Positions 10,336 through 58,434 of a DNA stretch of 64,000 nt are shown here, piece after piece. Every line of letters starts with the position of its first letter. Within the stretch, counting starts at the first letter, position 1. Under the pieces are notes generated by a model that searched no databases, was not told the origin of the DNA, and worked only from the letters and a program-made list of their open reading frames with translations. A program made the position numbers and the translations under genes. This DNA is from Eledone cirrhosa (taxonomy: Eukaryota), in contig OZ024745.1 of NCBI GenBank assembly GCA_964016885.1, positions 50,344,001-50,408,000 on the forward strand, written 5' to 3'.

Positions 10336-10714
10336 ATGTATATATGCATATATATATATACACATCTATTTGTATATGCGCTGCAATTTATATACATGCT
10401 ATGTAGAGACAGATGGAAGAGATATATATAGATACATATATAGAGAGGGAGAGAGTTGGTGTTAATTGATATAAATTTCTATTTATTTGCCACCAGGGCA
10501 TCAACGATTGGGACAAATACAAAGGGGGGAGTTTACATACATTTAAAAAGACGTGTAAAAAACATATAACAAATTAAATTTAACAATCGATGTCCTCAAT
10601 AGGGAGGGGCGTTGACATGGGTCGCACACACCCCCGAAAAAATGTGCAACCCTCCTCTTCAGGGGCACAACGAGCGGGTGCCTCCTTCCTCTTCTCATTC
10701 TTCTCCTCTCTCAC

Positions 10715-13700
10715 CTACAGGCTGATATAGAGAGAAGGCCCATTCACTCGGGCCATTCTCGCTACTTTCACCCACCTTTCATAAAACTTGCTGGGCTAAA
10801 GCACCTCTCTCTCCATTCTGATCCTTCTTCTAAAGTGGTACTTGAAAAAAAAGACCAGTTGTTGGCCGGAGAGTAAGGTGTCTGACCTCAGCCCTTTCAA
10901 CCTTGTCCACCATACAACTTCTTTCGCCATAGCTATCACACAGAGGAAAACCGCCTCTCCTTCGTTTTTGAAAGGGGGAGGCGGTTTGATCGTGACAATG
11001 TTCTCGATGGTCAACCGGATTGGTCCCACCCGCGACAGTAGTCGTTCCACATAGCCCCACAGGTCAGCAACGCCCGGGCAGTGTACGAATGCGTGTGCGA
11101 CGGTTTCCTCGTCACGCACGCATCTCGGACAGATATTCTTCGAGGGGTCCCTACCCGGGAGCCCGTGTCTGTAGAGCTTGTCCCGAACGGGTAGAGCTCC
11201 TCGGTAACATTGCCAAGCCAGGGACTTTTGGAAGTTGTCCATCGGTCCCGGGCCAAACGTCCTACCGAATAGACTGGCCAGCTCATCCTCCTCCATGACA
11301 GAGCCCCTCCGAGAGCGTCGTCGCACTTACTGCGCACCAATCCTCTATAGAATGTTGAGGTTGAGTCTCCACTGATTGCCGGATCCGCTTGCCAGAGGGC
11401 CGTGAGCGCCTGGGCACATTCAATGTGCCAGTCGCCCACTTTTCTCGGTCTTTGCTTGACCCAGGATTGCAGCTCGGTGAGTGAGACGAGTCTCAGAAAG
11501 GCTCGCCTCACAAACAGGGCCCACACCGTCTGACCGGTGAGGAATACCTGGAGGTGCCGTAGCCTTAATGCGTGTCTACGCATCGTCAGCCACAGCATCC
11601 CCAGCCCTCCGTTCGAAGGGTGTTGACAGCAGATGGATCTTCTCACCAAAGGAGCCCGCTTCTTCCAAAGAAATCGGAAGAGCGCGCGCTCCATTTTGGC
11701 GAGTGTTTTCTCTGGGTAAGGCACGACGGTCAAGCGGTAGTAGATGACGAACCAGACCCCGAGCAGCTTTACCGGTCCCTCCGTCCAGTGTCCGACGATG
11801 CCGTCGGAGGGCATCGTTTTGCCCCTCCACGTCCCGAGTTGCAAACCGACAGACTTGTCCCGGCTCAGCTTGGCTCCTGTGAACCTTTCATATTCTTCCA
11901 GTAAGGTGCCGATCTGCCCGATTTCCGAGGCGCATGACACCATTACTGTCACGTCATCGGCGTAGGCCGACACCTCTTTCCGCAATCCCGGTTCCAAGGG
12001 GATGCCCTGCAACAGCTCCAGCTTCCTCAGTAGTGGCTCGAGAGCCAGCACATACAGGAGGGAGGAGAGAGGGCATTCCTGTCGGATGGATCGCGTGATC
12101 AGGAATGGCTCCGAGAGGTAGCCGTTCACCTTGACCCTCGAGCAGGTGTTGCTGCTGTGCATTGCAGCAATCCAGCCCCTGAAAACGGGTCCGAAGCCTG
12201 CCGCCGCGAGCACCGCATCCAGGTACCGATGGTCAACCCTATCGAACGCCTTAGATTGATCCAAGTTGATCAGGGCCCCACCAAAGCCGGGTTCGTTTCC
12301 TACCCTCTCTACGATGTATCGCATGAGGTGGAGGTTGTCGTGTATGGACCTGGACGGGATTGCGCATGTCTGCGCTTCTCCCACCAGGTTCCCGACGACA
12401 AGCGCCAACCTCTTCGCTAACACCTTGGCCAAAATCTTTAACTCTGTGTTTAACAGAGTTATGGGCCTGAAGTTATCTATGTCATCCCCCTTGTTCTCGT
12501 CCTTCCTCACCAGCGTGACTACGCCTTTGGTCACAGAACTAGGAATTCTCCCGTTCTGTTGCCAGTTGCAGTAGACCGCCTCGAGGAGACCGGAGAACAA
12601 GCCCGGCATCGCTACATAAAGTTCGTATGGTAGACCATCGAGACCCGGAGATTTGCGTTTGCCGCATTGGCTCAGCGCTTCCCCTATTTCAGCGGCTGAA
12701 ATCGGCCTCTCGCAGGACTTCACCTCCCCGTCCGAGAGCCGCGCCAGACTGTCGAGGTATGGACCGAAATCCATGGCCCCACCCGGCCCGCCGCCCCTCC
12801 TGAACAGTCGTGCAAAGCGCCGTTGAAAGGCCGCGCTCATCCGCTCAGGTTCAAGGATCACGCGTCCATCCTGGTCCTTCAAAGACCGAATCGTGGACTT
12901 GTTTCCACTTTTTGCCTCTGTCACTCGGGCCCAGCTAACAGCTTTGGCTCCCTCGTTACCCAGAGCACGTATTTTACTCCTGACAACGCAGCCCTCGTGC
13001 TTCGCATCAAAGAACAGGCCTATGGCCGTTCTTGACGCCAGCACGCCCACCACGTTGCCACTCCTAATCGCCTCTTCTACTCTATTTGTTAATTGCCTTT
13101 CAGTTCTATTCCTATCTGATGCTAATTCCTGACTAAAACCTATCGATTCTATTCTAATTTCTCTCTTGAGAGAGCCCCACCATCTGCTGTTGACAATTGC
13201 CCCCATCAAACGCTTCTTAACTAGTGTGCTAATCCGCTTACTCTAAGCTTTGTTTGTCGGTAAAGGCAAGTTTAGCTTCCAGTAACCGGGTCCCTGTCTA
13301 TGAGTTCTATCAAGGTTGACCACTCTGGTCACCAACTTGTGATCCGAATAGTCAACCATGAACATTCGTGGACAGCTTAATATGTCCCTATCCTTATTTC
13401 TAACTAGGAACCTATCTAGGTACGGCCTAGATGTTCCGCTGCGATTAGTCCACGTCCACAGTGGCACAGTCGGAAAATCTAGTCGATATCTATCGGCCAG
13501 ATCAAATCGGCCGATTAATCGTTTGAGGCTGTTACACCCCCCTCTATCGGGACATGCCCCTACATAGTCCCAACGTGCATCCAGGATACCATTCCAGTCC
13601 CCCACTAAAAGCAAGGAGCGAGACGTTCCCAGGAAATTCTCCAGGCGTCGGAAGAAGTCCGGTCGCGTTGTACCAGATGTGGCATACGCTGCTACCAGCC

Positions 13701-14001
13701 TGAAAGCTCTACCTTCACCACTGCCGACGTCTAAAACCACCAGTCGACCCTCTGGGTCCAGGTGTACCTTCTGTGTGGCAAGACCCAGGTATTTTCGCAG
13801 CAGAACGACAACCCCACCCCCACCCCTCGGCTGACAGAGAGATGCATAGATGGGGGCCAGTTGGCGCTCGCTGCTGATCCTGGACTCGTAAATAACCATT
13901 ACATCCACTCTGTGCGACCTGGGGTCATTTAAGAGTTTGCCCTGTTTCCAGGACATCCCCAGGCCGCGTGCATTCACACATCCAACTCTTATATTGGCCA
14001 T
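10715..14001 (-). pseudogene. LINE ORF2 (APE endonuclease, reverse transcriptase, C-terminal zinc-binding domain) split by frameshifts
   Basis: APE motifs CVNARGL, GDWN, LDRF, SDH, WKLN (13243-14001). RT motifs KSPGLDGLP, FRPITLLN, DQSKAFDRV, AYADD, LGVWF (11011-13209). CPRC..ETVAHAFVHC (10796-11326). Last frame ends at TAG 10715-10717. Confidence 0.9.
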
Positions 14002-14043
14002 GTTGGTGCTGAAGAGTTTAAAAGGAAGAGGAAAGGAAATTAC

Positions 14044-15919
14044 TTACCTCTTCGTCTCCTGGGGACCAGGCTGCACAATTTCCATGGGGGTGTTGGAAGG
14101 GTTGTTTGGTGGGGTGGTGGTTTGTGGTAGGTTGAGGACATCAGTGTGTGGTGGGATTAGGGTATTTGGTGGGGTGTGGGTGTCTGGTGTGGGGGTGGGG
14201 AAACATCTCAATAGGACGTGGTTAAGGGGTTTGGTGCAGTTGGTCCCCACATGCATTGGATGGTTCTTTTTCAAAGTTACATAGGTTTCCGTTGGGACCC
14301 TAATCATCATTAGGTGCGGTTTGTTCGCTGCGCATGTGAAAGTGATCCCTTCGGTTTCCACCGAAGGGTTATTTTCTATTGCTTTCATCAACGTTTTATT
14401 GTTCTTGTTAATGTATGTATAGAGTTTTTGTTGTGTTGTGTTTGTTTTTGTTTGTTGTTCTTGTGCGTGTTTGCGTTTTGTAGTATGTGTTATGTTTTGG
14501 GGAGGGGTGGGGTTTTCTTGTTTGTGATGTTTGTTCTATTTGTGCTGGTGGTTGTGTGTTTGTAGCATTTTTGTTAATGTGGTGCCTTTTCTTTTTCCTT
14601 TTCACCTGTTGAAAGGGTTCTCCCTCGTCGTCACTGGGTGACGTTGATACGGAGTCCTCTTCCGTGTTGTTGGGGAGAGGCATATTTGGGGGTTTTGTTG
14701 TGGTTGCTTTTGTATTTGTTTTAGGTTCGGAGGGATTGGGTGGAACAGTGTTTTGTGTTGTTATTTTTCCGTGTTGTTGTTGTTGTTGTTGTTGTGGTGG
14801 TGGTGGTGGTGGTGGTGGTGGTGGTGGTGGTGGTGGTGGTGGTGGTGGTGGTGGTGGTGGTTGTGTTGTTGTGTTCGGGGTTGACAGAAGAGCCTTTTTT
14901 TTACTCCTTAATTGAGGACAGGCAGCCATCAGGTGACCCCTGCTTAAGCAGTTGTAACATGACGGCCGCCTTCCCTCCACTGAAATGTTTATATAAGTTA
15001 GCCCGTCCAGAGGCACGCGTTGTGGGATATTCGCTATTCGTTCTGGGCTCATTTGCACCAGAACTTCTACGCTGGTCCCACCAAATACACCTCCGGAGGA
15101 CTTTCCTATTGAAATTATCTTGTCTTCATCAAAGTCAATGATTCCACATAGTATCCACCAAATATTTACATTTGGTGTGATACTCATTATTTTTATTCTT
15201 TGTGTCCTTTTTCCCCTGTATGTGGGGAAAAAGGTGAAGCGGGGGGACACAATGGGTGATACCGAGTACTTTTGTGCTGTTGACTGGTTGTTCATTAGCA
15301 CCGAAATGCTACCAAACAGTTTACCTTTTTGTATGAAGGTTATGTCCTTTATTGCATCTTTTAGAAACAGCTCAATTTCATTTTGTGATAATTGAGCTGG
15401 TTTTCTTGTTTCGTTCGATATTGTCCTGAAAACTGTGGTTTTCAGGACAGCCTCTCTACATAATTTCTGTGGAGAATTGATGCTAAAAGCACCGTTTTCG
15501 CCAAAAGTCACGAATTGTTTTGCGTCTTGTAGTAGTTGTTTAGCATTTGTTATGTCTATTGGCGTGTATAGTTCGTTTTTTTTTACAGTCTGTGCGAACG
15601 TTGTTTTGGTGTTGTCTTTTTTGTTGCTGCTGTTGTTGTCTTTTTTGCTGCTGCTGTTGTTGTAACTGTTGGTAATATTGTTCATGTTTCCCTTGGTGTT
15701 GCTATTGTTGCAGTTGTTGGTTGTGGTGTTATTGTCATTGTTCTTGTTGTTGGTGCTGGTATTATTTACCGGGTTTGGTTTCGTGGTTTCAATATTTTCA
15801 ACGTTTTTCGATAATTCGAGGGGGGAAGGCTGCAAGCTTTGTACTCCTACCTTCCCTCCACCACTTTTCTTAGTGGGCGTGGAACTCACGACAGTGTGCG
15901 AGGTGGAAATGGCATCCAT
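14044..15919 (-). pseudogene. LINE ORF1 (gag-like, zinc knuckle); open 15919-14408 with a probable frameshifted tail ending at 14044
   Basis: EGRRPSCYNCLSRGHLMAACP knuckle; Asn-, Pro- and Thr-rich low-complexity linkers. An overlapping +1 frame (..QKLYTYINKNNKTLMKAIENN..PQETKR*) continues to 14044. Confidence 0.8.
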
Positions 15920-16124
15920 TGCTGACTACCAAGTCTACACAGTTTTGAGATGAAAATGAAAATTTCGCCCCAGAAAGGGGCGAAAATTAGTTGACTCAAC
16001 GTCTGAAGGCCCAGGCAAGGGGTTAAACTAAACAATGCTATTAAATTGAGCAATGAACTCACAGTTTTTTTTACAATAATCCGTAAAGGTCCGGAGCGAA
16101 GTAATTCACGTCTATATCAAGTGG

Positions 16125-16860
16125 TAATTGATATAGAGAGGAAGGTTGGGCGAGTGTGTTGTATAATAGATATAGAGAGGGGGAGAGATTGATGTTTAGT
16201 GATATAGAGAGAGGAATTTGAATAGAGTTCCCTGTAGTAGATATACAGAGGGGGAGAGTTTGGCGTTAATTGATATAGAGAGGGGTATTGGAAGAGAGTT
16301 AGGTATAGTAGATATAGAGAGGGGGAGAGTTGGGTGTTAATTGATATAGAGAGGGGCGGGGAGATTGATGTTTATTGATATATCATAGATACGGGTACTG
16401 GAAGAGAGTTCCAAGTAGTAGATATAGAGAGAGGGAGAGTTTGGTGCTAATTGATATAGTGAGAGGGGCGATGGAAGAGAGTATCGTGAAGTATATATAG
16501 AGAGGGGGAGAGTTTGGTGTTAATTTATATATAGAGTGGGATTGGAAGACAGTACCGTGTAGTAGATATAGAGAGGGTGATAATTTGTTGGTTGTAGATA
16601 TGCAGAGAGGGATAATGGGAAAGTGTCGTGTAGTAGATATAGAGAGGGGGAGAGTTTAGGGGTGATTGATATAGAGGGGGGATTGGGAAAGATAAGGGAA
16701 GATATTTATGGATAGTGAGAGAGAGTATTAGTGTTAGATATAGAGAGTGGAATAGGAGGGGCGGTGTCGTGGTAGATATAGAGAGGGGTAGAGTTTGGTT
16801 TTAGTAGATTAAAAGAGAGTTTTGTGTGATAGACATAGAGAGGAGGAGAGTTTGGTGGCA
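16125..16860 (+). repeat. Degenerate purine-rich minisatellite (GATATAGAGAGGGGGAGAGTTTGG...), target of the Tx1-like insertion
   Basis: GATATAGAGAG recurs about every 30-35 bp; the same unit is present left of the LINE at about 10405-10473. Confidence 0.85.
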
Positions 16861-22938: not shown

Positions 22939-25900
22939 TCTAGGGCGGGTAAAATTCCCGAGATCTATGGACGAGTTCTCTTCAGCGGTCTCTATCCCTC
23001 ATTATCGCTGCCATGTCCTGCGTCTCCAACAGACCAGTGTCTGTCCTTAGGGCATCAACATACGTTAACTTTGGTCTTCCTCTTCCAGTGTGTCCATGTA
23101 GGGGCTCCCACAGGAGCACTGAGTGCAATGTCAACTCTGGATGTCGGTGACATGTCCAGCCAACCTCAGTCTCCCGCGCGTCACTCCCGAGCTGACCCCT
23201 GGGAGACCCCCATACAGCCCTGAGTTCTTCATCCTCAGTGTATACTGATTAATGTTCAGAGCCATCCTCAGCATTCTCGTGTAGCACCCATCCACCATCT
23301 GAGTGAATTTTTTGGTCAGTGTCCAAGTCTCAGACCCGTACAGCAGCACAGACTCCACTACAGCAATGAAGAGGCGGATCTTCAGGTCTCACGAAGGTCC
23401 GACTTCCACACCGATCTCAAGCTGTGGCACGCCGCCCAGACTTTGCTCTTCCTCTCAACCACATCATCTTCCGTATTCCCAATCTTTGCTCCCAAATACA
23501 GGAAGTCCTCAACCAATTCTAGCGGCTTCCCGCCTACATTAGTGATCCCCTCTGGCTTCTCAACATTCTCTACCAGATATTTTGTTTTAGTCTCATTCAT
23601 TCTCAGCCCCACACTCATCGACACAGTCTCAACCTCCCGCATCAAATCCTCTGCCTCCTTCACTGTATTTGTCACCCAAACTATGTCGTCGGTAAATTCA
23701 GCATCTGATACCTTTTTCGCCTTAACTCTCCTGCTCTGAGCCGGTGCTACAGTAAAGCCAGAGTCCTGGTGTTTCTCCAGTGCAAGGCGCATACAATAGT
23801 CCACTACGATGACAAAAAGGTAGGGAGCCAATGTATCTCCCTGGAGCACTCCAGCCAGTATCTCAAAGAACTCTGTCATCCCATCAGGTGTAATGAGTTG
23901 GGCTTTAGTGTTGGTGTAGAGCAGTGATATCAGGTCCACTATCTTCTTGGGGGTTGCATAAGCCTGTAAGATCTTCATCAGGCAGTGAGGGTCCACAGAA
24001 TCAAAGGCCCTCCCAAAGTCAATGAAAACCATGACCGCAGGAAGGCACTTTGCTCTAGCTCCCTCTAATATCCTCCTCAGCATCAGGATGTGACTGGTGG
24101 TTGATCTTCCCTCTCTGAAGCTGTTCTGGTTGTCCCTGGGTTTCTTCTCCATCTCAGGCTGGATCCTGTTAAGAATCATCCTGTTGAGGGTCTTTGCCAC
24201 AAGTGACGTCAGTGAGATTCCCCTGTAGTTGTTGGGGTTAGAGTGATCTCCATTCTTTGGCACTGAGACGATGTTACTGATCCTCCACTGATTCGGGGCA
24301 ACTCCCTTCTCCAGTGCCTGGTTACAGAACCCCAGGATGATATCACCAAACTCACACCTCTTCATCACCTCTGATGCCACTCCATCCTCTCCATGAGCCT
24401 TGCCCTCCTTGATCTTCTTCTTGGCTCTCTGAAGCTCCTCTCTGGTGAAGGGCTCTGTCTCAATATCCAGTTCTTCAAACAGCCGCCTGATCTCCCCAGT
24501 GCTCTGGGCTGTGGAGGGTGGCTCTCCTAGTAGGGTCCTAAAATGGTCTAGCCATTTCCTCTTCCTATCCTTGGGCCCCGTTCCCTGGATCTGACTCGAA
24601 CACCTTCTCTTCCTCCCTGTGATCTCGTTGATGATCATCCAGCTCTCCTTACATCCAGATATGTCAACCACTCTCTCCACACTTCTGATCTTCTCTATCA
24701 GTGCCTCCTCTCTGACCTCAGTGTAAGCGGTACAGAGTTCTTCCCTCATCACCTCCACAGTCTCCATCCTCTCCTCCGTAGGATCAGCATAGAATTAGTC
24801 CTTGGCAGCCTTCAGGTGTTCTCTGGCTGCACACACTTTTGGGTTTGCAGAGCTGACGTGCTTCCTTTTGTTCTTTTTCCTCGGCACCAGGGTTTCACTT
24901 GCTTCCGCCACTGCATTGGTGAAGTGCCCGTACTTCCTCGTCACACTCTCCTCAGTCCATCCTCTGTCTCTCCACACAGAACACTGAACCTGTTCCTTAC
25001 TTCCCCTGTGAACCTCTCCTGTAGCTTATCATCTTCCTTGAAAGCTCCCCAGTCATAGATTGCTCTCCGGAGCTGAGCCTTGCTCTTTCTTAAACTCACC
25101 CGGACCTCACTCATAACAAGCCGGTGGTCACTACCCAGTGTACTGAAATAGTTGTATGGTTCTGTGTTCAGAACACTATTCCGCCACTTTTTCCTCACCA
25201 GAATGAAATCAATCTGGGACTTGGACAGGTGCATATCTGAGATGTAGGTCCACATCTTCCCCAGATTCTTCCTAAACCTTAGGTTGGTCGCCATCAAGTT
25301 CGCCTCCAGCAGGGTGTCTCTCAGTAGTCTTCCATTTCGGTTGGTGTTGTTATGGAAGTACCAGCAAGGATCTTCACTGCCCTCCTTACTCAAATGTGCA
25401 TTGAAGTCCCCCAAAACAAGCAGGATGCTATGTGCTTGAGTGGTGTTGACAGCTATACACACCTCCTCATGGAACTCTTCCGCACTCATATCACTGTCTC
25501 CCTCGGTTGGACTATAGGCTGAGATGACTGTCAGTCTTGGGTTTCCATTGAAGGTCACCCTCAACACTCGCGGGGAGACAGGCATTAGTTCATTCACCAA
25601 TAGACTGGTTTTTGTGCTGAAAACAAAACCCACTCCTCCCACTGCAGCATTGGTCATGTTCCTCACTGCCGATGTGGTGATGAGCTGGCTCCTCTTCCCA
25701 ATCATTACACTCCTCACGGGCACATCGTGTAGGATCCTGTGTTCTTGGATCGCAAGTATCTGTATACCACTCTCCTCGAACAGATGTCCCAACTCCTCTC
25801 TCTTCTCCAGCGTCCGAATAGTCCTCACATTCAAAGTGCCCATTTTGATGGCTCTTCTGCAGGACAAAACTACATTATTTATATTTGTCTCAGAGACAGC

Positions 25901-26229
25901 TGATCCATCATCCACTGGCCATCTCCGTGGCTCTAAGGCAGCAGAGTCATAACGTCCAGGCTGCTCCTTGACAGTGTAATTAAGGGCTCTAACCCTAATG
26001 CTGTTAGATCGACTCTCCATATTTCTTTTCAATAGCTGACAATATCTTACCGGCGCCACTCGAATAAGGTAGTTATTTAACCCATAAATAGGGCCCTAAC
26101 AGGTACTACTACTCCGGGCCAGAGCAGACCTGGGAGTTATGACAACTAAGGGGTAACTCCACATTCCACCACAGCTCCTGAACTCCCGAACTGGAGCCTT
26201 GCCACTGGATGTAGTTTAATGTCATACCC

Positions 26230-26235
<6 letters not shown>
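22939..26235 (-). mobile_element. RTE-clade LINE, single ORF (APE+RT) with several frameshifts, inserted in (TA)n
   Basis: APE motifs GTLNVRT, QEHR, AYSPT, GDFNAH, IDFI, SDH (24941-26059). RT motifs NYRGISLTS, GVLQGDTLAPYLF, degenerate EFTDD, FLYLG (23382-24767). RTE tail ESVLLYGSETWTLT, RLRLAGH, GRGRP. Ends right after the stop codon. Confidence 0.92.

Positions 26236-26304
<69 letters not shown>

Positions 26305-44734: not shown

Positions 44735-58434
<13,700 letters not shown>

Follow-up and report, generated by a model that had tools for sequence, protein, structure and literature searches.

The LINE element and its surroundings

The window, i.e. the whole 64-kb stretch of DNA analysed here, 12% of which consists of dinucleotide repeats, carries on its minus strand a full-length but inactive L1/Tx1-like LINE of 5,651 nt (10474–16124), delimited from its ORF map, Pfam matches and a search for target-site duplications. 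This element is inserted at the edge of a 71-bp satellite found at 16121–16686 and 10400–10473. It displays L1-type ends, namely an AATAAA motif at its 3' end (10482–10487, minus strand) and, on both sides, an 11-nt direct repeat found by direct-repeat search, which is a candidate target-site duplication (5' copy at 16125–16135 and 3' copy at 10463–10473, both on the minus strand). The repeated word also belongs to the flanking satellite, several units of which hold it (three for the word of the 5' copy), and this may point to a target preference.

ORF1 (14044–15919, minus strand) probably encodes RNA-binding-like domains and a weak CCHC knuckle. Its look-alikes in the Atlas, at 0.90–0.92, include clusters of CCHC, RRM and ZCCHC3 type, and its Pfam match to zf-CCHC (E 0.013) is below the cut-off. 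The ORF is 40% A and contains three AATAAA signals (15353, 15197 and 14400). As the preliminary description had noticed, ORF1 of this copy is frameshifted upstream of its end, the frame changing between about 14535 and 14408. Its last ~20 codons (14061–14118, minus strand) are well covered by related contigs from all four runs that were compared, which suggests that the tip of ORF1 next to the putative donor described below is conserved.

ORF2 (10715–14001, minus strand) begins with an ATG at 14001, with A at −3 and G at +4, and this Met is the protein start in close relatives. According to Pfam, ORF2 encodes an APE-type endonuclease at its N-terminus (PF03372, E 2.9e-8, above the cut-off), a reverse transcriptase (PF00078, E 7.7e-24) and, in the frameshifted C-terminal frame, a zf-RVT domain (PF13966, E 6.6e-8). 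The closest solved relative is the L1 ORF2p (E 5.5e-34, vs E 7e-19 for R2). ORF2 carries an 18-nt deletion near 13848, stop codons at 13245–13243 and 10798–10796 and a frameshift near 11290; with these lesions and the frameshift of ORF1, the copy is dead. Named protein matches come from Argonauta hians (59%) and Octopus bimaculoides (49%) and, together with the dinucleotide repeats, suggest an octopod host. In a tree of endonucleases, which includes no Tx1 references, the window LINE falls beside proteins of O. bimaculoides and Argonauta (8 rows, 100/99). The element is presumably Tx1-like.

Elsewhere in the window, a second, decayed LINE (22990–26240, minus strand), which we take to be RTE-like, has a single ORF encoding an endonuclease and a reverse transcriptase, ends with a TA repeat and displays no donor at its ORF end. 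A 433-aa open frame at 57133–58434 (plus strand) encodes C2H2 zinc fingers whose sequence presumably resembles PRDM13.

The ORF1–ORF2 junction in the window copy and its relatives

The minus-strand letters at the junction are those that the preliminary description had reported. A donor-like site, GAG/GTAAGT (14042–14050), straddles the end of ORF1, so that the stop codon TAA (14046–14044) occupies its positions +2 to +4. It is followed by a pyrimidine tract and an acceptor-like CAG (14009–14031) located 7 nt 5' of the ORF2 ATG. The span from the donor G (14047) to the acceptor G (14009) is 39 nt, and the two ORFs are 42 nt apart. With the 39 nt removed, ORF2 would continue the frame of ORF1, and the spacer left unspliced also keeps this frame, interrupted by a single stop codon. 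By its GT and AG ends, consensus donor and pyrimidine tract, the spacer resembles a U2 intron; its sole branch-point-like word (TAAAC/TTAAC-like, read by eye) lies about 10 nt from the AG.

According to simple counts rather than trained models, the 14047 donor is the best U1 match of the whole element (8 of 9 positions) and the 14009 acceptor ranks first among 148 YAG sites scored for pyrimidines. The presence of one strong donor in a 5.6-kb element is unremarkable (1 observed vs 1.07 expected at the same threshold), but the position of this donor exceeds chance. The longest plus-strand word common to the 200-nt junction regions of this LINE and of the distant family described below, AGGTAAGT, occurs only once across both strands of the window, at 14049. 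Its chance of occurring in a given 50 nt is about 0.0007 (about 0.005 for GGTRAGT), the test of position having been made independently, in the distant family. In addition, folding compared with shuffled sequences predicts an RNA hairpin (14025–14053, minus strand) in which the purine-rich ORF1 end and the donor would pair with the pyrimidine tract; its support in the window copy is modest (z −1.65; 8 of 200 shuffles fold equally well).

Related contigs from four runs (987, 2248, 20 and 12 records) were aligned on 13800–14640, and only the best-supported rows were considered. Of the four diverged variants of the spacer that were shown, one has GTAAGT, one GTGAGT and two GTAGGT, in each case after a G, and the letters past +6 vary. 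Within the donor, these variants differ only at +3 and +4, where U1 tolerates variation. The triplets at +2 to +4 are the three stop codons, all of which occur among the copies. The GTAGGT variants show a matching change in the 3' arm of the predicted hairpin, a change noticed by eye in two partial sequences and which is only a lead.

Among the 12 indel rows shown (of 47), seven are losses of 1–2 nt within 14016–14041. Furthermore, partial letters give a GT-to-AG span of about 31 nt in one copy and about 40 nt in another type. Judging from these contigs, the frame of the spacer is not kept among copies, which argues against readthrough. In one group (9 contigs, agreement 0.78), the 30 nt 5' of the ORF2 ATG contain no AG; of the two sites, the acceptor seems to be the less constant. 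Of the three properties for which the preliminary description had proposed an alignment of family copies, the donor is found conserved in these rows, the acceptor apparently less so, and the frame is not kept.

The excision of the 39 nt does not appear among the 15 joints shown (of 108) in the contig alignments, contigs in which rare variants are dropped; dips of depth over the spacer were left out of the reading. A joint between 13844 and 14047, given without its intervening letters and starting at the 18-nt deletion specific to the window copy, was rejected as a splice. None of the best 150 protein matches, obtained with a query carrying an X at the stop codon, spans the junction. Two of these 150 representatives, P0078 and P0124, carry long N-terminal extensions, rejected as ORF1 fusions because they show by eye no likeness to the ORF1 tail. 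A weak search with the ORF1 tail gave no match among 24 candidate proteins, and the protein searches gave 2 matches among longer proteins and 4 among proteins of similar length.

Donors at the ORF ends of a distant LINE family

The scan of prokaryote assemblies led to a distant family, represented by 50 loci in two metagenome bins that hold animal-type LINE DNA, which we infer to be co-binned host DNA. The endonucleases of this family and of the window LINE are 38% identical. Residues 160–336 of ORF1 also align between them (24%, E 9e-13), and the ORF1 of the distant family has a zf-CCHC match above the cut-off. In G001, a bacterial metagenome bin, 73 endonuclease matches lie in arrays. Indeed, contigs C3–C19 (L001–L047, L049–L056, L063 and L065) carry head-to-tail arrays of mostly intact L1/Tx1-like units of 6.4–6.8 kb, which have ORF2 and the 3' UTR in common and have exchanged their 5' UTRs and ORF1 starts. 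These arrays look like co-binned animal DNA and resemble telomeric or centromeric LINE arrays. Another bacterial bin includes a eukaryote-like contig (G002:C16, 539 kb; L057–L061) with decayed, dispersed copies of the distant family, likely a contamination of the reference collection.

Viral contigs, metagenome contigs, plasmids and 150 + 400 further prokaryote genomes were scanned and gave no usable result. Four other loci, i.e. three large-virus contigs with a lone reverse transcriptase-like ORF and one unrelated contig, were set aside as uninformative for the junction. In each of the large DNA virus contigs L077, L079 and L080 (186–211 kb), a single isolated ORF of about 490 aa is 29–31% identical to the reverse transcriptase region of the present LINE group.

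In 49 of the 50 loci of the distant family, the end of ORF1 consists of the stop codon, a G and GTAAGT, followed by 7 nt and the ORF2 ATG; the exception is a decayed copy (L048) that has lost the GT. The motif here stands 3' of the ORF1 stop codon and not over it. ORF1 and ORF2 are out of frame, and the junction displays neither a pyrimidine tract or usable AG before the ORF2 ATG nor a significant hairpin (z +0.43). All 64 ORF1 ends matched in G001 are followed by GTAAGT and none belongs to a spliced retrocopy, these array copies being nearly identical and corresponding to about 6–8 subfamilies rather than to 64 independent events. L061, a more diverged copy, differs in its stop codon and spacing and yet retains AG/GTAAGT. 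A sister family (L065, 44% identical to L020) is devoid of the junction donor; it has one donor within ORF2, at +213, and another where this ORF ends. Also considered was an 18S-pairing UGGGA motif located at the distant junction, which was dropped since subfamilies do not share it.

The motif is not restricted to the junction. GGTRAGT occurs exactly twice in all six distant units scanned (two of them bounded by fixed offsets), once 13 nt 5' of the ORF2 ATG and once where ORF2 ends, whereas 0.63–0.84 occurrence is expected anywhere per unit. The site at the ORF2 end is present in 9 of 9 aligned sequences, including L061 and L065, at the very start of a 3' UTR of roughly 700 nt. In eight aligned 3' UTRs, one near-duplicate row being left out of the scoring, GGT and AGT are two of the only 11 invariant runs of at least 3 letters in 953 columns. 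A pyrimidine-rich TAG lies 207–250 nt downstream of this donor in 7 of the 8 scored 3' UTRs. Moreover, a GTAAG site is found at +50 to +112 in each of seven 5' UTRs of the distant family, only three of which carry strong acceptors 3' of it; acceptor-like sites are common in T-rich UTRs. In L007 (455–560), and also in L011, L015 and L063, the donor-like site of the 5' UTR lies inside a perfect 15-bp inverted repeat, which for L007 gives a predicted stem with z −4.4 (0 of 200 shuffles). About 175–195 nt past the L007-type donor, a strong TTTTCAG acceptor-like site gives the 5' UTR of these LINEs an intron-like appearance.

The window copy has weaker counterparts of both outer donors, with a U1 match under 7/9. 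The one in the 5' UTR, ACT/GTGAGT (16057–16065, minus strand, about +62), stands after an A run; with its G at 16062, it is the only GTRAG in this 5' UTR and no ATG precedes it. A weak acceptor-like stretch 5' of ORF1 (15935–15990, minus strand) includes CTAAT at 15990 and a TAG ending at 15935, with 12 of 20 pyrimidines, and a 9-bp hairpin (15963–15985) lies within it. At the end of ORF2 (10709–10737, minus strand), a pyrimidine stretch, the stop codon TAG and GTGAGA form a site that is donor-like (TAG/GTGAGA) and acceptor-like at once. Joining the 14047 donor to the AG of this stop codon would restore the last Arg and the stop codon of ORF1, as would any donor-like word at this place.

Possible uses of the donors

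From these comparisons, the conserved feature of the ORF ends appears to be the donor rather than a mini-intron. The splice-signal reading of the preliminary description is thus supported by the conservation of the donor in diverged copies and in a 38%-identical family, but the ORF1–ORF2 fusion that it proposed as the outcome is not. That the spacer is a real mini-intron leading to such a fusion in the cephalopod family seems very improbable. Admittedly, 39 nt separate the element's best donor from its best acceptor, the two would splice in frame, indels in the spacer would leave the spliced fusion undisturbed and short canonical introns are reported in humans (PMC5435141); no minimum intron length for cephalopods was found in the literature surveyed. 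However, the distant family has the donor without any acceptor and only 7 nt before the ATG, one group of copies has no AG, the span is about 31 nt in one copy and the only branch-point-like word is about 10 nt from the AG. Furthermore, the ORF2 Met is kept as a start in close relatives and the junction is unspanned among the best 150 matches. As RNAs that make reverse transcriptase are preferentially copied (PMC5860796), an efficiently spliced form should also have replaced the family. Fusion by readthrough of the stop codon, for which the in-frame spacer of the window copy and its single stop would speak, is hardly credible and largely refuted by the frame-breaking spacers: copies of related runs have lost 1–2 nt, spacers of about 31 and about 40 nt occur, all three stop codons are seen, and the ORFs of the distant family are out of frame. 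It is just as hard to believe that all the motifs arose by chance. Although a strong donor is expected roughly once per element, the sister family lacks the junction donor and only two independent lineages have it there, chance does not account well for a position-specific recurrence in an independently found family (p about 0.0007–0.005 per site) at three equivalent sites.

The explanation that we prefer, tentatively and with somewhat less than even confidence, is that the donors of the ORF ends and 5' UTR are selected splice sites that would use distant acceptors to give single-ORF mRNAs. The 14047 donor and 14009 acceptor would be too close for efficient joining, the 39-nt gap thus keeping the two ORFs from being joined, and the predicted hairpin would mask the donor. 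If the 14047 donor were spliced to an acceptor located at the ORF2 end or 3' of it, the product would be an ORF1-only mRNA encoding an unchanged protein. For the window copy, the partner might be 10715; for the distant family, it might be an acceptor of the 3' UTR, about 240 nt 3' of the donor that stands where ORF2 ends. In the cephalopod family, the 5' UTR donor could be joined to the 14009 acceptor to give an ORF2-only mRNA, like the human SpORF2; after the join of 16062 to 14009, the ORF2 ATG would become the first ATG. The unspliced RNA would be the template of retrotransposition, and it is for this reason that genomic copies would keep all the signals. In mammals, a splice junction near the stop codon avoids nonsense-mediated decay. 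The location of the ORF2-end donor at the start of the UTR, near the stop codon, and more generally of donors at stop codons, fits such avoidance, the rule being mammalian and the host a mollusc.

Several observations stand against distant splicing. No spliced retrocopies are found in G001, L065 has no junction donor, one copy group has no AG at 14009 and L048 has no GT. The ORF2-only step would not be general, as no clear acceptor precedes ORF2 in the distant family. The donor variants correspond to the three stop codons, so that two constraints coincide at +2 to +4. Lastly, by analogy, splicing harms transposition of the human L1 (PMC5860796), which would count against selected splice sites in a related element.

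A more elaborate version of distant splicing, unlikely as a whole, would treat the ORFs as mutually exclusive exons, with one 5' UTR donor serving both, each ORF flanked by an acceptor on its 5' side and a donor on its 3' side, and the unspliceable 39-nt gap between the two ORFs. ORF2 would then be produced from its own spliced mRNA and not by re-initiation, and hairpins would mask the donors in the transposing RNA. In alpha-tropomyosin, mutually exclusive exons are kept apart by an intron too short to be spliced. The likeness lies in a strong donor and an acceptor too close to join, each with possible distant partners; here, however, entire ORFs of a mobile element would take the place of exons, and it is only in the cephalopod family that all the sites are found. 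Ty1/copia elements (copia, EVD) splice out their enzyme ORF to make a gag-only mRNA and use the unspliced RNA as their genome, but these are LTR elements with one long ORF, whereas the present element is a two-ORF LINE.

Two other readings dispense with regular splicing. The donors could be docking sites of the U1 snRNP, rarely or never spliced, guarding an A-rich intron-less transcript from cryptic poly(A) signals or attenuation, the pyrimidine tract serving as one arm of a hairpin or as a U-rich aid to U1 binding. This reading, the main rival, which we hold to be doubtful, agrees with donors more consistent than acceptors across families, with the absence of spliced retrocopies in G001, with the strong predicted stem around the L007 donor and with poly(A) signals in ORF1 (3 in the window copy and 4 in L055) and none in ORF2 of either. 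Moreover, 5' splice sites protect against attenuation by Restrictor (PMC12211998). It does not account for the placement of the donors at stop codons instead of elsewhere in a long UTR. In addition, U1 bound 230–700 nt 5' of the true poly(A) signal would be expected to inhibit it. Evasion of HUSH was set aside as the role of such sites, since the intron-mediated protection does not need a 5' splice site (PMC8770142).

Alternatively, the motif could be kept for a role unrelated to splicing, either as a signal for termination and re-initiation, the hairpin bringing the ORF1 stop codon near the ORF2 ATG, or as a protein-binding site in DNA. Translation of ORF2 would then rely on re-initiation, a mechanism proposed for L1 and SART1, the standard model being re-initiation across the spacer between the ORFs (PMC5972666). 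The correspondence of the +2 to +4 variants with the three stop codons and the hairpin predicted over the ORF1 stop agree with this proposal, and the donor of the human L1 has an explanation at the DNA level, being attributed to a RUNX3 site (PMC5860796). Nevertheless, we judge it improbable: in the distant family, the motif lies past the ORF1 stop and the junction has no significant hairpin, and further copies of the motif stand in the 5' UTR and where ORF2 ends, places at which re-initiation is needless. Re-initiation may still be the way in which ORF2 is made from unspliced RNA. The present LINE shares with L1 and SART1 two ORFs that lie a short distance apart (42 nt here and 63 nt in L1) and an ORF2 with its own ATG, but the re-initiation model does not explain why U1-complementary motifs stand at ORF ends (PMC5972666).

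Splice signals are already known in LINEs, and the conserved ORF-end donors would be a new variation. The human L1 makes a spliced ORF2-only RNA (SpORF2) beside its full-length RNA, using a 5' UTR donor and an internal acceptor (PMC2896524). The window copy has the corresponding pair, with the 16062 donor lacking an upstream ATG and the 14009 acceptor, and the distant family has no such acceptor before ORF2. Unlike what is described for SpORF2, the best candidate acceptor here lies 7 nt 5' of the ORF2 ATG, and the window lineage has further putative donors at both ORF ends, kept between 38%-identical families. A donor in the 5' UTR of the human L1, conserved near the 5' end of the element, is seldom used, RNA structure having been proposed to conceal it, and its spliced products (SpIREs) are dead ends (PMC5860796). 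As far as compared, that work describes no donors at ORF ends. Such donors were mentioned for L1/Tx1-like elements in none of the titles and abstract openings surveyed, mostly from non-subscription literature.

LINEs are copied via RNA and should therefore lose working splice sites. The presence of ORF-end donors across 38%-identical lineages would thus point to a selected use of the spliceosome or of U1 by an intron-less element. If true, this would provide another answer to the questions of what sets the ORF1:ORF2 ratio in two-ORF LINEs and how these escape RNA surveillance. In Octopus vulgaris, the recently active elements include L1-Tx1 families (13 families, 421 insertions; PMC13282606).
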